Below, one piece after another: positions 12,664 to 64,000 of a stretch of 64,000 nucleotides of DNA. The translations under genes and the position numbers were made by a program. The stretch is from Actinomycetes bacterium (GTDB lineage: Bacteria; Actinomycetota; Thermoleophilia; UBA2241). The notes below the pieces were generated by a model. The model saw only the letters and a list, made by a program, of their open reading frames with translations. It searched no databases and was not told where the DNA came from. Where the stretch lies: assembly GCA_029547745.1 (NCBI GenBank), contig JAKPOQ010000033.1:59129-123128 (forward strand). Direction: 5' to 3'. The number at the start of each line of letters is the position of its first letter. The first letter of the stretch is position 1.

Positions 12664-14260
12664 GGATCGGGTACAGCGGCTGTCCGCCCTCGTAGATGTG
12701 CACCTCGAGGTCGGGGGCGACGGACGCCGCCACCTCCGCCAGGCGCGCGGCCGTGGTGGGCGATCCGTTCAAGGCCGTGAGGACGGTCACGACCTCGGCG
12801 TCGGCGGCGGCGAACGCCTGCACCACGCCCGCGTAGACCGTCTCGAGGTCGTCGGCGACGGTGACCAGACGACCGTCGACGAGACCGATCGCCTGGCCCT
12901 TGCGCACGACGACGCCGTCGACCTCGGAGTCACGCACGGCGTGGGTGATCTCGGCGCTTCGCAGTCCCCGGAGGGCGTTCTCCATCGCCCGCGCGTTCCC
13001 GACAGCGTCGTCATCGGCGGTGAACGCGACCATCGCCGCAAGTCCGGCGGGCATGGAAGTCGTCGGCACGACGGCGATCCGTCGCCTGCTCATCCCGGCG
13101 GCCTGCTCGGCCGTCAGTATCACGTTCCCGTTGTTGGGGAGCAGGATGACCTCGTCGGCGGCGAGCGTCTCGACCGCCTCGAGGAGCTGCGCCGCGCTCG
13201 GGTTCATCGACTGTCCGCCGTCGACGATGGCGTGGCAACCGAGCTCGCGGAAGAGGCGCTTGTTGCCTTCCCCGGCAACGACGGCCACGACCACGGTCGC
13301 GGGGGCCTCCGGCGGCGCGCCGAGCCGGTCGTCGCGCGCCCGCGTCTGCTCGTGCATGTCGTTGATCTCGACTTCGCCGATGGCGCCGTACCTCAGCACT
13401 TCACTGAGGACGACCCCCGGGTCGTCGGTGTGGACGTGGATCTTGACGAGCCGCTCGTCGCCCACGACCAGGGCGCTGTCGCCGATGCGCCCGAGGAAGG
13501 CCTCGACGGCGTCGCGATCGACGCACTCGCCCTTGATCAGAAGGCTTGTGCAGTAGCGGTAACGCGACAGTTCGGACGGCTGAGTGAGCGTCACCGGCGG
13601 GGCGCCGGGAGCGCGCGGCGCCAAGGTTGCGCCGCGCACGCCGGCGCCCCCAGCCGCCACCCGGGCGAGCCCCTCGGCGACGCCGCGCAACAGCACCAGC
13701 AGGCCATACCCGCCGGCGTCGACCACGCCGGCCTTCTGTAGGGCAGGGAGCTGATCCGTCGTCTTCTCGACCGCGACCCGCCCGGCCTCTTCGACGACGA
13801 CGAGCACCTTGTCGAGGGCGAAGCTGTCGGGCACGCCCTGGGCGGCGGCCGCCATCTCGCGGATGACGGTGAGCATCGTCCCCTCGACCGGTTCCTTGAC
13901 GGCCCGGTAGGCGGCGCTGGCCCCTTCGGCGAGCGCCGCTTTGAACTCGTGGGCGCCGAGGAGGTCGGACGCGCTCCAGACGTCGCAGACGCCACGCACG
14001 ATCTGCGACAGGATGACGCCGGAGTTGCCCCGCGCGCCCATCAGCGAACCCTTCGTCACCGCGGCCGCGACGGCGGGCACGCCGTCCTCGTCCCCCTGTC
14101 GGAGTTCGTCGACGACGGCTCTCACCGTGAGGGCGAGGTTGGTCCCGGTGTCACCGTCGGGCACCGGGTACACGTTGAGGTCGTTGATCAGGCCCCTCTC
14201 TGCCTCGACGGCGGCGAGGGCGGCTTCGATGACCGTGAGTGCCGCGGCGCGGACGTTCAA
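12647..14260 (-). CDS. fakA: DAK2 domain fusion protein YloV (fatty acid kinase FakA-like)
   Basis: 537 aa; N-terminal Dak2 domain (NVYPVPDGDTGTNL) plus a C-terminal DegV-like/FakA C domain; found in the conserved asp23-yloV-degV-recG arrangement. Confidence 0.88.
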   Translation of the reverse strand: MNVRAAALTVIEAALAAVEAERGLINDLNVYPVPDGDTGTNLALTVRAVVDELRQGDEDGVPAVAAAVTKGSLMGARGNSGVILSQIVRGVCDVWSASDLLGAHEFKAALAEGASAAYRAVKEPVEGTMLTVIREMAAAAQGVPDSFALDKVLVVVEEAGRVAVEKTTDQLPALQKAGVVDAGGYGLLVLLRGVAEGLARVAAGGAGVRGATLAPRAPGAPPVTLTQPSELSRYRYCTSLLIKGECVDRDAVEAFLGRIGDSALVVGDERLVKIHVHTDDPGVVLSEVLRYGAIGEVEINDMHEQTRARDDRLGAPPEAPATVVVAVVAGEGNKRLFRELGCHAIVDGGQSMNPSAAQLLEAVETLAADEVILLPNNGNVILTAEQAAGMSRRRIAVVPTTSMPAGLAAMVAFTADDDAVGNARAMENALRGLRSAEITHAVRDSEVDGVVVRKGQAIGLVDGRLVTVADDLETVYAGVVQAFAAADAEVVTVLTALNGSPTTAARLAEVAASVAPDLEVHIYEGGQPLYPILAGAE

Positions 14261-14622
14261 TCCTGCAGGTCCTCGACCCGCACCGTGATGTCGGTCACGG
14301 GGATGCCCGTGACCTGCTCGAGGCGGTAGCGCACCTGCTCCTGCAGGTTGACCGTGACCTGCGCGAGGTTCACGCCCCGTTCCATGACCACGTGCAGGCT
14401 GACGCGTACCCCGGCGTCGCCGGCTTCGACGTCGACGCCGTCGGCCAGCGCGTCCCTGCGCAGGCGGGCGAGACGCCGCACCGGCGAGGACTGCATGGCG
14501 ACCACACCGTACGTAGCGCGCGCCTCGGCTCCGGCGAGCTTGGCGACGACGAGAGGCGCGACGACGAGCTCGCCGCTCATCCCGGAGCCGTCCAGCGGCA
14601 GCCTCACCTCGTTGCCGGTCAT
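14257..14622 (-). CDS. asp23: Asp23/Gls24 family envelope stress protein
   Basis: 121 aa DUF322/Asp23 fold; ATGA overlap with the DAK2 gene; alternative start at MSGEL (14580). Confidence 0.8.
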   Translation of the reverse strand: MTGNEVRLPLDGSGMSGELVVAPLVVAKLAGAEARATYGVVAMQSSPVRRLARLRRDALADGVDVEAGDAGVRVSLHVVMERGVNLAQVTVNLQEQVRYRLEQVTGIPVTDITVRVEDLQD

Positions 14623-17104: not shown

Positions 17105-17742
17105 CAGAACCCCGCTTCCGCAAGCTTCTCCCAGGTCAGCCCCCCGGGCGGCCGGCGCCGCTCGAGGAAGGCGTGGACGTACTTGGCGATCAGATCCGCC
17201 TCGAGGTTGACGCGCCGGCCGGGCTCGAGGCTCGACAGCGTCGTCACCGCCGCCGTGTGCGGGATCAGCGACACGCGTACGACCTCGCTCTCGACGCTCA
17301 CCGCCGTCAGGCTCACCCCATCGACGGCGATCGATCCCTGAGGCACGGTCACGACGGCCACGGACGGGGGGACGGCGATGTCGACGACGCCGGCGTTGGC
17401 CTCCGAGGTGACCCGGCGGACGACGCCCACCCCGTCCACGTGACCGCTCACGAGGTGCCCACCAAGGCGCCCCTGCAGCGTGAGGGCCCGCTCGAGGTTG
17501 AGCCGGTCGCCGGTGCGCCGCTCGACGAGCGTCGAGCGGCGCACCGTCTCGGGCATCACGTCGGCGCTGAACCCGTCCCGGCCCACCGCGGTCACGGTCA
17601 GGCACACGCCGTCGGTGAGGACCGACTCGCCGACGGCGAGCCTGTCGAGGACCGTTCGGGCGCCGATCTCGAGGACGGCGTCGCCCGGCCCCACGGTGAG
17701 GCGACGCAGCGTCCCGACCTCCTCTACAAGCCCGGTGAACAT
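17104..17742 (-). CDS. ribE: Riboflavin synthase alpha subunit
   Basis: 212 aa [10 protein letters not shown]... with duplicated lumazine-binding repeats; ATGA overlaps on both sides. Confidence 0.9.
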
Positions 17743-18914
17743 CAGGACCCGGCCTCCGCGCCGGTCGCCGCCCGCGCCCAGGCCGGCGCGCGAGGCGGGC
17801 TGGCCTGCGGTCCCGCCTCGCGCGCCGGCACCGAGGCGCGCAGCAAGAGGTCGTCGCCTACGGTCTCCCAGGTAACGTCCGTCACGCGCAGGGCGTCGGC
17901 CAGGCTGGTGACGGCGGGCGCCGCCAGCAAGTCGGGCGCGCCGCGCCCGACGAGCAGCGGCGCCACGAAGACGGCCAGCCTGTCCACCAGTCTCTCGGCC
18001 AGCAGGGACGCCGTCAGGCCCGGCCCGCCCTCGCAGAGGATGTCCAGCAGACCGCGGTCGGCGAGGGCGCGCAAGCCCGTGCGCAACCCGCCCGCGCCCA
18101 TGGTCACGACCTCCGCGCCCTTGGCCTCGAGGGCGCGGCCGACGGCCGCGTCGACGTCGCGGACCAGCACGATGGTGCGTACGGCGGCCGCGGTCGCCAG
18201 CAACCTGCAGTCGTCGGGTAGGTCCCCTGCGCTCGACACGATGACGCGCGCCGGGTCGCGCCCCTGGACGAGACGGACGGTCAACTCGGGGTCGTCGCGG
18301 CGCACGGTGCCGGCGCCGACCATGACCGCGTCGGCGACGGCGCGCATCGCGTGCCCCCGGCGGCGACTCTCGACGCCAGAGATCCAGCGCCCGTCGCCGC
18401 CCGCGGCGGCGACCTTGCCGTCGAGGCTCACCGCAGCCTTGCAAGTGACGAGCGGCAGCCCGCTCGTCACGGCCTTCACGAAGGCGGCGTTCTGGACGCG
18501 GGCGCGCCCCTCCCAGCGACCGCAGCCGCTGTCGACGCTCACGCCGGCGGCGCAGAGGCGCTCCAGCCCGCGCCCGTCGACGAGCGGGTTGGGGTCGCGC
18601 ATGGCGACCACCGCCCGCGTCACGCCCGCCGCCACGAGGGCGTCGGCGCAGGGCGGCGTGCGCCCCTGATGGGCGCAGGGCTCGAGCGTACAGTAGAGTG
18701 TCGCCCCGCGAGACGCGTCGCCGGCCTCACGCAGGGCGGCCGCCTCGGCATGGGGTCCACCCGGCGCCGGGTGCCACCCCCGGCCGACGACACGGCCGTC
18801 CTTGACGAGCAGCGCCCCGACGAGCGGGTTCGGGTGCGTCGCGCCACGACCGTTCTCGGCCAGACGGAAGGCCTCGTCCATGAAGCGGTCGTCGTCGCGA
18901 CGTCCCTCGTCCAT
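17742..18914 (-). CDS. ribD: Bifunctional riboflavin biosynthesis deaminase/reductase RibD
   Basis: CMP/dCMP-type deaminase zinc motif (HAE...[11 protein letters not shown]) plus the RibD C-terminal reductase domain; AAGGAGG Shine-Dalgarno 10 nt upstream of ATG 18914. Confidence 0.9.
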
Positions 18915-18994
18915 CGGCCTGCGTCCTCCTTAACGCACGACGCCCCGAAGCAGGCGGCTTCGGGGCGCTCGACGACGGTACGCTACGTCGCGTG

Positions 18995-19112
18995 TGGTCT
19001 TCTTCCATCCGGACTCTGACCGTCGGCCCAGGAGTTCCACCTGGTCAACCTCTTGCGAGGCTCGCGGGCTCTCACCGCCGGTGGGGACTTCCACCCCGCC
19101 CTGAAGCCACTC
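18995..19112 (-). promoter_or_regulatory. FMN riboswitch (RFN element) in the ribDE(BA)H leader
   Basis: The minus-strand RNA reads AGGGCGGGGUGGAAGUCCCCACCGGCGGUGAGAGCCCGCGA...GGUGGAACUCCUGGGCCGACGGUCAGAGUCCGGAUGGAAGAAGAC, matching the conserved FMN aptamer blocks. A TATACT -10 box sits at 19129-19134 and a 9-bp GC hairpin (GCCCCGAAG...CUUCGGGGC) lies between the aptamer and the Shine-Dalgarno sequence. Confidence 0.88.
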
Positions 19113-53156: not shown

Positions 53157-53426
53157 TCAGTCGCCGGCGTCGAACGGGACGCGCGGCACGTCGCCCCACA
53201 GGTTCTCGAGGCGGTAGAACTCGCGCGCCGCCGGCGTGAACACGTGGACGACGACGTCGAGGTAGTCGAGCAGGATCCAGTCGCCGTCGCGCTCGCCCTC
53301 GATGCGCGCCGGCCGCAGACGGTGGCGCAGACGCGTCAGGATCTCGTCGACGATGGCCCTGGTCTGACGCGTGGTCGCGCCGGTGGCGATGACGAAGTAG
53401 TCGGTGTAGGTGACGGCGGCGGCCAT
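53157..53426 (-). CDS. rsfS: Ribosome silencing factor RsfS (Iojap); the conserved N-terminus extends upstream to 53525 without a canonical start
   Basis: TDYFVIATGATTRQTRAIVDEI...WILLDYLDVVVHVF is the RsfS core. The 33 codons upstream of the first ATG encode VSDAPDAQALRDLALEIAGFAAGKKAKDVVVLE, which aligns with RsfS N-termini. That frame opens with GTA at 53525, overlapping the upstream TAA stop as GTAA. Confidence 0.75.
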   Translation of the reverse strand: MAAAVTYTDYFVIATGATTRQTRAIVDEILTRLRHRLRPARIEGERDGDWILLDYLDVVVHVFTPAAREFYRLENLWGDVPRVPFDAGD

Positions 53427-53521
53427 CTCGAGGACGACGACGTCCTTGGCCTTCTTCCCCGCCGCGAACCCGGCGATCTCGAGCGCCAGGTCGCGCAGAG
53501 CCTGCGCATCCGGTGCGTCGC

Positions 53522-54667
53522 TTACTGCAGGTCCTTTGCCGTCAGGTCTTTGCCGACGATGACGACGACGGTCGTCGGCCCCAGCCCGTCGCCCTCGAGG
53601 ACGACGCCGCGACCGAGTATAGCACGCACCTCCCCGGCCACCTGGAGCGCCTCGGCGCCCGCCAGGATCTGCGTCTTGCGGTAGTCGAACGAGTCCGCGT
53701 TCCCCGTCTCGGGGAGCTCGACGTCGAGCGTCGCCAGACGCTCGACGACGAGCTCCCCGATGCCCAGCTCCCCGCTCCCGTTGCGCACGAGGACGGTGAA
53801 CGGGGCCGAGAAACCCGGCGCGCGACGCGTGATCTCGGCCATGATCCTCTCCCGGTCCGGCCGATAGACGAACTGTCCCAACGCCGTCCTGCCGATCGAA
53901 GGAAGCCGTTCCACATCGGGGTCACCGGCCGTCGCCGTGGTCAGGACCTGACGCAGGTAGCGGCGTTCCGAGCCACGAGCGGCGCCGGCGACGGACGTGA
54001 TCAGCCGCGAGCGCTCGGCCTCGGGCTGCAGGGCGGCCGCGGCGAGGACGGCGCGCACGAGGGCCTCCTGCATGGCCGCCTCGTCGGCGCCGTCCTCGCC
54101 AGTCGCCGCCAACAGCTCGCCGATCTGCTCGCGCGGTACCGCGAACCGCCCCTTGTACTCCTGCAAGACCCCACCCACCTCGAGCTGGACGGGATGCTCG
54201 AGCTTCACCCACAGCTTGGCGCTCGTCACCAGACGCTCGAGATCGGCGTAGGCGAGCGTGTACTGGAGGTCGATGCGCGCCCCGAGCAACCGCTCCAGGT
54301 CGTCCGCCAGCTCGCCGGCGGCGAGCATGTCGCCGGCGAGGACGTACTCGCCGCCCTCCCGCTCCAGGAGCAGGACCCGCGGCACCGTGTACAGGCTCAC
54401 GCTGCCGTCGTCGGCGTCGCGCAGGGCGAGCACGGCGCCGGGCTGGCCTTCGCCGGCCTGGCCGAGGGAGATCAGGGCGAGGTAGCCGGCGCGCGGTTGC
54501 GGCTCTCCCTCGCCCAGGATCCAGCCCGCGAGCCGGCCGGCGCCGGCCACTGCCGCGAACGCCACGAACACCGCCAGCGCCACGAGGAACACGACCTGTC
54601 GCCGCTGGACCACGCGTTCGCGACGGCGTCGCAGCCGTCCCACTCGGTAGCCTTCAGCGCGCGCCAT
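53522..54667 (-). CDS. LytR_C (cell envelope-related transcriptional attenuator C-terminal) domain membrane protein
   Basis: N-terminal transmembrane segment and a C-terminal LytR_C-like domain (FTVLVRNGSGELGIGELVVERLATLDVEL...VVIVGKDL). Confidence 0.6.
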   Translation of the reverse strand: MARAEGYRVGRLRRRRERVVQRRQVVFLVALAVFVAFAAVAGAGRLAGWILGEGEPQPRAGYLALISLGQAGEGQPGAVLALRDADDGSVSLYTVPRVLLLEREGGEYVLAGDMLAAGELADDLERLLGARIDLQYTLAYADLERLVTSAKLWVKLEHPVQLEVGGVLQEYKGRFAVPREQIGELLAATGEDGADEAAMQEALVRAVLAAAALQPEAERSRLITSVAGAARGSERRYLRQVLTTATAGDPDVERLPSIGRTALGQFVYRPDRERIMAEITRRAPGFSAPFTVLVRNGSGELGIGELVVERLATLDVELPETGNADSFDYRKTQILAGAEALQVAGEVRAILGRGVVLEGDGLGPTTVVVIVGKDLTAKDLQ

Positions 54668-62384: not shown

Positions 62385-63110
62385 TCACTCCTCTCCCCCG
62401 GACGATGCGTCGCGGGGCAATCCTTGGTAACTCACGCCCACACGCGTGAGATGGTGCGCGACCGACGCGCAACCGGCGCGGCCCGCGAGGAGGTCGATGA
62501 CCTCCTGGGGCCGCGCCGCCCCGTCATGCCGGTGGCGCACGACGAACGTCACGTGCGCTCCTCCCGGGACGGGCTGCACGGCCAGGTCGCCGACATACCT
62601 CGTCAAGTCGAGCGTGCGGCGCCCCTTGGGCGTGACACGCTCGACCGTCACTCCTTCTTGCGCGGCGAACCAAGTCGCCGCCGCCACGAGCGCGCCGGGG
62701 TCGCCGCGCATCTCGGCCGCGTAGCGCGCCTCCAGGGCACGCGGGCGCGGGCGCATCGCACACGTCTGCAGGCGCAGGGGCGTGATGCCGGGCGGCGCCG
62801 CCGCCTGCAGCGCGCCCAAGGCGCGCGCCGGCGGCGGCGCCCCGTCCGCCACCTCTGCGACGGCGAGCTCGTCCAATCCGGCCGCCCCGACGGGCAGGGG
62901 CAGCGGCAACGAAAGCCTCGCCTTGGGACGGAACCCCCCCGAGAGCGCGAGGGCGACCCCCGCACGGGCGAACGTCCGCTGCAGGGCGCGGACCGTGTCA
63001 AGGTGCGACACGTAGCTCGCCGCCCCGGAGCGTTCGAACCAGAGCAGCCAGTACGTTCCCGGCGCGTCTCCCCCACCGCCGGGTCGAGACTCTGCAGCGG
63101 CCCGCGTCAC
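62385..63110 (-). CDS. DUF2344 (TIGR03936-like) radical SAM-associated protein
   Basis: YWLLWFERSGAASYVSHLDTVRALQRTFARAGVALALSGGFRPKARLSLPLPLPVG matches the DUF2344 pattern; GTG at 63110 forms a GTGA overlap with the upstream radical SAM stop. Confidence 0.72.
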   Translation of the reverse strand: MTRAAAESRPGGGGDAPGTYWLLWFERSGAASYVSHLDTVRALQRTFARAGVALALSGGFRPKARLSLPLPLPVGAAGLDELAVAEVADGAPPPARALGALQAAAPPGITPLRLQTCAMRPRPRALEARYAAEMRGDPGALVAAATWFAAQEGVTVERVTPKGRRTLDLTRYVGDLAVQPVPGGAHVTFVVRHRHDGAARPQEVIDLLAGRAGCASVAHHLTRVGVSYQGLPRDASSGGEE

Positions 63111-64000
63111 GCGACGACCTCCATCTCGACGCCGCCGCCGCAGACACCGCAGGCTCCACATTCCCCGCGACGACAGTCCTCGGTATGCAGGCCGGCCTCG
63201 GCGCGCCGCCGCTCCTCGTCCAGGAACGCGGCATCGACGCCAGGGTCGACGGCCTCACGCCACGGGGCGGTGGCCGGGTCGGTCATCGCCGGCTCACCGA
63301 GCGTGACGCCGCAGGACGCGGCGGCCGTGCTCCAGGCACGCAGGTCGAAGCGCTCGCGCCAGCCGTCGAAGCGGGCGCCGTTGCGCCAGGCGGCTTCGAC
63401 GAAGGCGTCGGAGCCGCGACCGCCACGGGCGAGGCTCGCCTCCACGAGCGAGCCGGAGACGTCGTGGAACGCGGCCTTCACGGTCCGCGGCAGCGCGTCA
63501 TGCAGCAACCGCTGGCGTCGCCGCAGGACGACCTCGCCGGCGAACGCCTCGCGTTCGAACGGCGTATGCGGCTTGGGCACGAAGGACGACACGGCGACGC
63601 TCAGGCGGGCGCGACCGCGACTGACGCGCCTGGCGAGCTCCGCGGCCTTCGTCGCCGTTGCGGCGATGGCGCGCGCGTCGTCGTCGCTCTCACCGGGCAG
63701 GCCGAGCATGAAGTACAGCTTCAGCCCGGTGAACCCGCCGCTGAACACCGCCTCGACGGCGTCCATCAGTTGCGCCTCGTCGACCCCCTTGTTGATGCGC
63801 TCGCGCAGCCTCTGCGTCCCGGCTTCGGGGGCGAGGGTCGCCGACCCGCGCTGCCCGGCGCCGAAGCGCCCCAGACGCACGGCCGCGGAATCGACGCGCA
63901 ACGAGGGCAGCGAGACGCGCAGCCCCGGGCGCAAGGCGCGGACACGCTCGACCGCCTCTCCGATCGCCGAGTAGTCGCACGAGCTCAGCGAGACCAGCGA
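63107..64000 (-). CDS. B12-binding-type radical SAM protein (TIGR03960-like), C-terminal part; the 5' end lies beyond the window
   Basis: The frame stays open to the window edge (SLVSLSSCDYSAIGEAVERVRAL...FSGGFTGLKLYFMLGLPGESDDDA...SSFVPKPHTPF), which is a radical SAM C-terminal barrel. Confidence 0.72.
   Translation of the reverse strand, partial: SLVSLSSCDYSAIGEAVERVRALRPGLRVSLPSLRVDSAAVRLGRFGAGQRGSATLAPEAGTQRLRERINKGVDEAQLMDAVEAVFSGGFTGLKLYFMLGLPGESDDDARAIAATATKAAELARRVSRGRARLSVAVSSFVPKPHTPFEREAFAGEVVLRRRQRLLHDALPRTVKAAFHDVSGSLVEASLARGGRGSDAFVEAAWRNGARFDGWRERFDLRAWSTAAASCGVTLGEPAMTDPATAPWREAVDPGVDAAFLDEERRRAEAGLHTEDCRRGECGACGVCGGGVEMEVVA

Follow-up and report, generated by a model that had tools for sequence, protein, structure and literature searches.

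Where translation of rsfS, the gene for a ribosome silencing factor, begins is a puzzle in a 64,000-nucleotide stretch of contig JAKPOQ010000033.1 (assembly GCA_029547745.1, positions 59,129 to 123,128 of the forward strand; hereafter the window), which comes from an Actinomycetes bacterium of the Thermoleophilia. On the minus strand, no ATG, GTG or TTG precedes the ATG at 53426 in the rsfS frame, and a product begun at that ATG is 89 residues long and lacks the N-terminal part of the protein, just as an earlier reading made from the DNA alone (the sequence-only reading) had described. Upstream, a GTA codon overlaps the stop of the preceding gene and follows a Shine-Dalgarno (SD)-like motif. 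The answer favoured here, with a probability of about 60%, is that RsfS arises by SD-directed initiation or re-initiation at this GUA, a start that would be kept deliberately weak. Two lines of evidence carry this reading, namely the conservation of the SD-like motif, its spacing and GTA across related genomes, and the coding character of the codons that separate GTA from the start annotated by NCBI. The features involved are as follows.

53157..53525, minus strand: rsfS frame as proposed, 122 codons from GTA to TGA, with a Pfam RsfS match of 107.4 bits
53525-53523, minus strand: proposed initiation codon GTA, in a GTAA overlap with the LytR_C stop
53526..53531, minus strand: spacer of 6 nucleotides between the SD-like motif and GTA, invariant in length in the clade described below
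53532..53538, minus strand: CAAAGGA, the SD-like motif, 6 nucleotides 5' of GTA
53524-53522, minus strand: TAA stop of the LytR_C gene, which ends ...GAC CTG CAG TAA
53522..54667, minus strand: LytR_C-domain gene (Pfam PF13399), 381 amino acids, upstream of rsfS in conserved synteny
53490..53522, minus strand: codons 2-12 (SDAPDAQALRD), apparently translated as a variable N-terminal tail, with fixed length, no in-frame stops and G periodicity
53498-53496, minus strand: CTG codon 10, the NCBI-annotated start of a 113-amino-acid product with an expected N-terminus of the (M)RDLALEIAGFAAGK type; not conserved in orthologues
53489-53487, minus strand: CTG codon 13, a second in-frame near-cognate codon
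53426-53424, minus strand: internal ATG (Met34), the first canonical start and an invariant internal residue of strand b1
53159-53157, minus strand: TGA stop of rsfS

The bases that end the LytR_C gene read GGA CCT GCA GTA AGC in the rsfS frame, hence the GTAA overlap, and from GTA this frame encodes VSDAPDAQALRDLALEIAGFAAGKKAKDVVVLE, then Met34, and continues to the TGA. The geometry of the overlap is shared by other junctions in the window, where 4-nucleotide stop/start overlaps occur as GTGA (three cases) and TTGA (one case). The sequence-only reading was right about this overlap but wrong to have the frame open at GTA, because the frame extends without a stop through more than 80 additional codons of the LytR_C gene and GTA only overlaps the stop. 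Its statement that the stretch between GTA and Met34 contains no ATG, GTG or TTG is correct but overlooks three alternative starts of NCBI translation table 11 among these 33 codons, namely CTG codon 10 (the NCBI start), CTG codon 13 and ATC codon 17. The conserved, SD-proximal GTA itself lies outside the table 11 set (ATG, GTG, TTG, CTG, ATT, ATC, ATA).

That the codons upstream of Met34 belong to RsfS is clear from homology, as had been claimed. These 33 codons encode helix a1 and strand b1 of the protein, and the 122-residue product matches Pfam RsfS (PF02410) over profile positions 2-98 with 107.4 bits, whereas the 89-residue product matches positions 25-98 only (91.5 bits) and loses positions 1-24. 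In the best match in the PDB, RsfS of M. tuberculosis (4wcw, E = 6e-28), query residue 12 is aligned with chain residue 9, so a tail of 8-12 residues before helix a1 is normal for the family. From family membership alone, the product is predicted to bind uL14 on the 50S subunit and to block subunit joining.

To place the locus among its relatives, 177 loci were gathered from genome and metagenome collections and through exact-protein look-ups, and each was read in the rsfS frame. Clade A, a group of uncultured Thermoleophilia, was delimited by protein identity (58-100%) and by the presence of a LytR_C gene upstream, the codon at the overlap not being a criterion; 33 distinct sequences were quantified, to which L175 and L176 were added. 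Members share one anatomy, consisting of C-AAAGGA, 6 nucleotides, GTA, a G or A, 11 more codons, and the motif Leu13-Ala-x-(Asp/Glu)-Ile-Ala that begins helix a1. Deviations are limited to one extra codon in L102, a degenerate SD-like AAGCGAG in L092 and GGAGGA in L106. In an unbiased listing the codon at the overlap position is a non-GTG valine codon, and on codon reading it is always GTA. The question posed by the sequence-only reading, whether orthologues carry GTG here, is thus answered: every clade member has GTA and none has GTG.

When changes are counted by Fitch parsimony, with the tree taken from codons 34-111, there are 0, 0 and 0 for the three positions of GTA and 0, 2, 1, 1, 1, 0 and 0 for the columns of CAAAGGA, with 4-10 in most flanking columns. 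CAAAGGA-N6-GTA is the most conserved block from -60 to +120, where nothing but invariant residues (Lys24, Lys25 and Met34, for example) equals it, and AAAGGA (GGAGGA in L106) stands exactly 6 nucleotides from GTA in all but L092. This spacing falls inside the range of 5-9 nucleotides from SD to start that is quoted in PMC2268962. The assignment of the motif as an SD takes its complementarity from the general anti-SD sequence and not from the 16S 3' end of the host, and no tRNA or rRNA genes are present in the window. Within the window, AAGGA-N6-GTA occurs once, against 0.15 occurrences expected by chance. A scan of the window for a wider habit of non-canonical starts was negative: coding-like sequence precedes the first canonical start in none of the other complete genes, and the sole flag, 63107-63934, runs off the window end. 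The conserved SD lies 33 nucleotides from CTG codon 10 and 42 from CTG codon 13, and there is no other conserved SD near the rsfS start.

Because the SD-like motif lies in the 3' end of the LytR_C gene, its conservation might reflect the protein encoded there. In three lineages the LytR_C gene stops short of the junction: its TAA is 21 nucleotides upstream of GTA in L090, its TGA is 20 nucleotides upstream in L176/L177 (two assemblies), and in L096 tblastn puts LytR_C in another frame, ending ...VVVIVGKDLNP-TGA 25 nucleotides before GTA. CAAAGGA-N6-GTAGC is nonetheless intact in L090, L096 and L176. The tail of LytR_C is otherwise variable in sequence, and the change of AAAGGA to GGAGGA in L106 alters the residue but retains a purine-rich SD. 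The motif therefore cannot be attributed to LytR_C coding alone. Its retention where LytR_C stops 20-25 nucleotides upstream also bears on the mechanism offered by the sequence-only reading, GUA initiation by termination-reinitiation: GUA is the start best supported by the comparative data, but strict termination-reinitiation is probably not required.

The stop codons at the junction follow a pattern of their own. A GTAG or GTAA overlap is found in 31 of the 33 sequences analysed and in L175, the exceptions being L090, L096 and L176. In all 31 overlapping loci the stop is TAG or TAA and never TGA, a stop that ends about 70% of the minus-strand genes of the window and that would here create GTG. 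In L096 an in-frame TGA lies 12 codons before GTA, and between that TGA and codon 8 there is no canonical or single-mismatch codon. With the SD 6 nucleotides away, no other conserved SD in the vicinity, and no such codon in L096 up to codon 8, GTA is the only conserved candidate for the P-site codon. No conserved RNA structure surrounds the junction (RNAalifold consensus of -1 kcal/mol), and a hairpin that includes GUA in the fold of the window's own sequence is not conserved.

If initiation occurs at GUA, codons 2-12 must be translated. The distance from GTA to codon 13 is 36 nucleotides in 33 of 34 sequences and 3 nucleotides longer in the other; the true spacer between rsfS and dinB measures 51, 59, 66, 71, 86, 106, 108 and 139 nucleotides in relatives of at least 77% identity. 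Deeper branches have rsfS-dinB distances of about 600-950 nucleotides because a CAP-domain (PF00188) gene has been inserted, an arrangement seen in some clade members (L175; L176, 1902-2419). There are no in-frame stops from GTA to helix a1, as compared to 3 and 4 in the other two frames. The frequency of G at codon positions 1, 2 and 3 is 0.53, 0.12 and 0.37 in codons 2-12, and 0.60, 0.09 and 0.38 in codons 13-33. GC content at third positions is 0.78 in codons 2-12 versus 0.93 in codons 13-33; a lower value is typical of the first codons of genes, although non-coding sequence would fit it too.

Substitutions point in the same direction. Across 15 independent sister pairs, the ratio of nonsynonymous to synonymous differences (pN/pS) in codons 2-12 is 0.70 in frame versus 1.10 and 0.93 off frame; codons 13-33 give 0.48 versus 1.28 and 1.05. 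Between the window and its nearest relatives (L168, L171, L174), codons 4-8 differ only synonymously (CCG/CCC, GAT/GAC), and third-position changes leave Thr8-Thr9-x-Glu11 intact in the L086-L106 and L089-L099 groups. The residue encoded by codon 2 is small throughout (Ala, Ser, Thr, Gly or Val). Deep-tree parsimony by codon position shows weak periodicity only (55, 62 and 79 changes in codons 2-12), which is why composition, indels and comparisons of close relatives were used for these codons. Taken together, length, stops, composition, substitutions, close relatives and codon 2 place the N-terminus probably upstream of CTG codon 10, and the call of the NCBI annotation pipeline (PGAP) would then be 9 codons short. 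The anatomy of the junction, its conservation and a coding signature that extends upstream of every alternative start are thereby established.

The case for GUA as the actual P-site codon, for its use by initiator tRNA and for a regulatory rationale goes a step beyond this anatomy. In the proposed mechanism, RsfS would be made as a protein of about 122 residues with its start at or immediately beside the GUA that overlaps the LytR_C stop. The 30S subunit would be placed by the conserved AAAGGA motif 6 nucleotides upstream, either arriving de novo or being retained after termination on LytR_C, and initiator tRNA would pair with GUA by means of a G.U wobble at the first position and an A.C mismatch at the third. 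Such a start looks deliberately weak, GTG never being seen in the clade. In the five loci with TAA or an upstream stop, a single A-to-G change would yield a canonical GTG or GTGA like those of neighbouring genes, while in TAG loci the same change would first abolish the LytR_C stop. With a weak start sensitive to initiation factor IF3, the level of this 50S anti-association factor would follow both upstream translation and the activity of initiation factors, and such a start would be biologically sensible on rsfS, since RsfS and IF3 both oppose subunit association. Whether GUA is a genuine, selected natural start of rsfS throughout the clade, held two mismatches from AUG and gated by IF3 stringency, upstream termination or both, is a stronger claim, and judged on comparative data it falls a little short of even odds.

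Several observations weigh against initiation at GUA. Codons 2-12 are only weakly constrained by purifying selection (pN/pS 0.70), and there is phylogenetic relatedness among the sequences compared. The premature LytR_C stops of L090 and L176 could be recent, in which case retention of the motif there is weaker evidence, and the G at position 0 is partly explained by a preference for CAG or AAG as the last LytR_C codon. All members of the window's subclade have CTG or GTG at codon 7 or 10, and the window genome could start there. No natural GUA start codon is known; as described in PMC6200909, the known natural non-AUG starts of bacteria all lie one base from AUG. Relative to AUG, initiation in E. 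coli reaches 10-100% for AUG, GUG and UUG, about 1-2% for CUG and AUH, and 0.01-1% for the remaining 57 codons (Hecht et al., bioRxiv 10.1101/063800).

The strongest competing explanation, which is unlikely but has about one chance in four, is a start at an in-frame CTG, either codon 10, as annotated by NCBI, or codon 13, with an untranslated spacer between the LytR_C stop and the CTG. CTG is a recognised, if rare, bacterial start. The best database match, P0001, a 113-residue ribosome silencing factor in NCBI from a Thermoleophilia metagenome-assembled genome (MAG), is 99% identical to the window protein, and its Met1 corresponds to CTG codon 10. This protein is encoded in four MAG assemblies (GCA_035374325.1, GCA_035419265.1, GCA_035424825.1 and GCA_035421865.1), in all of which PGAP makes the same CTG call; they differ at nearby single-nucleotide polymorphisms and share ...AAAGGACCTGCAGTAAGC... 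and CTG at codon 10. Calls of GTG or ATG type are placed at codon 10 in P0002, P0003, P0007 and P0013 and at codon 13 in P0004 and P0014, and initiation at codon 13 would retain the whole Pfam domain. Among orthologues, though, codon 10 is CTG in the nearest relatives only and otherwise GTG, GCG, ACC, TCC or others. Codon 13 is CTG in 26 and TTG in 2 of the 33 sequences, a total of 28 in its favour, yet CTC or CTT in the other five, including L087, L092, L093 and L116; in L087 and L093, CTG and ATH codons are missing altogether before codon 17, as are the canonical ones. Canonical codons are scattered: 23 of the 33 sequences have no ATG, GTG or TTG in codons 1-16, and the others carry them at codons 4, 5, 7, 8, 10, 11 or 13. 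Neither CTG has a conserved SD 5-9 nucleotides upstream, codons 2-12 have the fixed length, open frame, periodicity and synonymous differences of translated sequence, and a CTG start would leave unexplained both the invariance of GTA and the absence of TGA.

The Gaiellales, whose rsfS looks clearly like a gene with a conserved CTG start, both lend this alternative precedent and show what such a start entails. Among 45 distinct sequences (L003-L061 and L107-L158), the start is CTG in 36 and TTG in 9 and never ATG or GTG. In-frame stops are often found 2-19 codons upstream, and AAGGAC lies 11-12 nucleotides upstream across a spacer with 1-nucleotide indels, so that a true SD-CTG leader tolerates changes of a kind that the GTA-to-codon-13 interval of clade A does not. 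A conserved GGnTACACTG box that resembles a -10 promoter element was also observed in Gaiellales, about 35 nucleotides upstream of the start in the CTG type and 8 nucleotides upstream in the TTG type; with the box so close to the start, the mRNA of the TTG type would be leaderless or nearly so.

A second alternative, considerably less probable than a CTG start, combines several weak sites (GUA, CTG codons 10 and 13, and, in other lineages, incidental GTG or ATG codons), with short scanning tethered by the SD giving rise to mixed N-terminal proteoforms. The scattered positions of the canonical codons fit this model, as does L176, where the SD is conserved despite a separate GGAG-ATG at codon 8, and anchoring of re-initiating ribosomes by SD motifs is described in PMC2268962. 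A coding signature in codons 2-7 would be unnecessary, however, were most of the product begun downstream.

Two further explanations seem improbable, each rated below mixed initiation. In the first, ribosomes would slip into the -1 frame near A-AAG, within the final LytR_C codons, and produce a LytR_C-RsfS fusion with no need of a separate start codon. The rsfS frame does stand at -1 relative to LytR_C and runs through the junction without a stop, and GCA-AAG offers a single-tRNA lysine slip site. There is no X-XXY-YYZ heptamer, however; A-AAG is G-AAG in L087 and L102 and is absent in L106 and L092, the flat RNAalifold consensus leaves no conserved downstream structure, and in L090, L096 and L176 the LytR_C stop precedes the motif. 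The LytR_C product has one N-terminal transmembrane helix, which would put its C-terminus outside the cell, where a ribosome-binding domain would be useless, and no long fusion protein occurs among the 120 best homologues. In the second, the true start is the ATG at 53426, producing a truncated 89-residue RsfS or marking a decaying gene. This ATG is the only canonical start, and 10 of the 120 best homologues are annotated by Prodigal-type callers as products of 88-89 residues from the same Met, with one further call of 93 residues. Codons 13-33, which encode profile positions 2-24, are clearly under purifying selection (pN/pS 0.48 vs 1.28 and 1.05), and in full-length homologues Met34 lies inside the chain and is invariant; a start at this Met is contradicted by these conservation data.

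The remaining suggestions of that reading, a sequencing or assembly error and a strain-specific G-to-A change of an ancestral GTG, can be set aside, since four independent assemblies that differ at nearby polymorphisms all read GTAA, every clade member, from many independent metagenomes, carries GTA with zero parsimony changes and no GTG in orthologues down to 58% identity, and nothing was found in their favour.

The confusion over this start is not confined to the window. Annotated starts of the 120 best homologues (P0001-P0120) range over about 30 codons, from window codons -12 to 34, and 52 of the 120 lie at codon 14 or later, inside helix a1 or beyond. Thus rsfS is systematically mis-annotated in Thermoleophilia metagenomes, with gene callers shortening the gene.

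Three side observations concern further features of the window. The 3' end of the LytR_C gene contains an imperfect tandem repeat (window 53526-53554, minus strand), GGCAAAGACCTGAC / GGCAAAGGACCTGCA, encoding GKDLT / AKDLQ; an extra G in the second copy creates the AAGGA motif, and the SD-bearing tail may have originated by duplication. The junction with the TTGA overlap (window 14257-14280, minus strand) is preceded by GAGGACCTGCAGGA, of which GGACCTGCAG is common to the rsfS junction, maybe by coincidence. Elsewhere, an FMN riboswitch (Rfam RF00050, 103 bits) lies at window 18992-19112 on the minus strand, upstream of a 390-residue open reading frame at 17742-18914.

If initiation at GUA is correct, rsfS of clade A would present the first natural GUA start codon and the first natural start two positions removed from AUG. 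An SD-paired GUA start maintained across a clade would widen the natural repertoire of start codons and give a natural setting in which IF3 fidelity and re-initiation could be tested. Together with the starts of the Gaiellales and E. coli, weak starts look like a recurrent property of rsfS, which suggests control of rsfS dosage at the start codon across distant bacteria.

How does this arrangement compare with known systems? The infC gene has an AUU start codon through which IF3 autoregulates its own synthesis. Both cases involve a non-canonical start on a translation-factor gene, conserved across orthologues (GTA in the clade, CTG or TTG in Gaiellales), through which expression would depend on the fidelity of initiation, and RsfS and IF3 are both subunit anti-association factors; AUU, however, is one base from AUG and GUA two, and the link of rsfS to IF3 is one of analogy. 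Coupling through NTGA overlaps provides the geometry, which is that of the GTGA and TTGA junctions of the window, with the SD inside the 3' end of the upstream gene. Unlike those junctions, the codon at rsfS is GTA rather than NTG, the stop is TAA or TAG and never TGA, and the motif survives where the stop has shifted by 20-25 nucleotides. The one documented GUA start is a GUG-to-GUA mutant of E. coli recJ; the mutant codon is used at a low level, and mutations in IF3 (infC) restore expression (Haggerty & Lovett 1997, cited in PMC2268962 and PMC6200909). There, as is proposed here, GUA serves as a low-efficiency initiation codon, with apparent coupling to an upstream open reading frame and IF3 as the discriminator, but the recJ codon is a laboratory mutation with no SD, whereas the GUA considered here is wild-type, conserved in a clade and accompanied by a conserved SD. 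Weak starts of rsfS elsewhere, UUG in E. coli (PMC10917681) and CTG or TTG in Gaiellales, differ in being accepted table 11 codons at a conserved position, behind a leader that in Gaiellales is clearly non-coding; what they share with the GUA of clade A is the gene itself, and the avoidance of ATG and GTG at its start.

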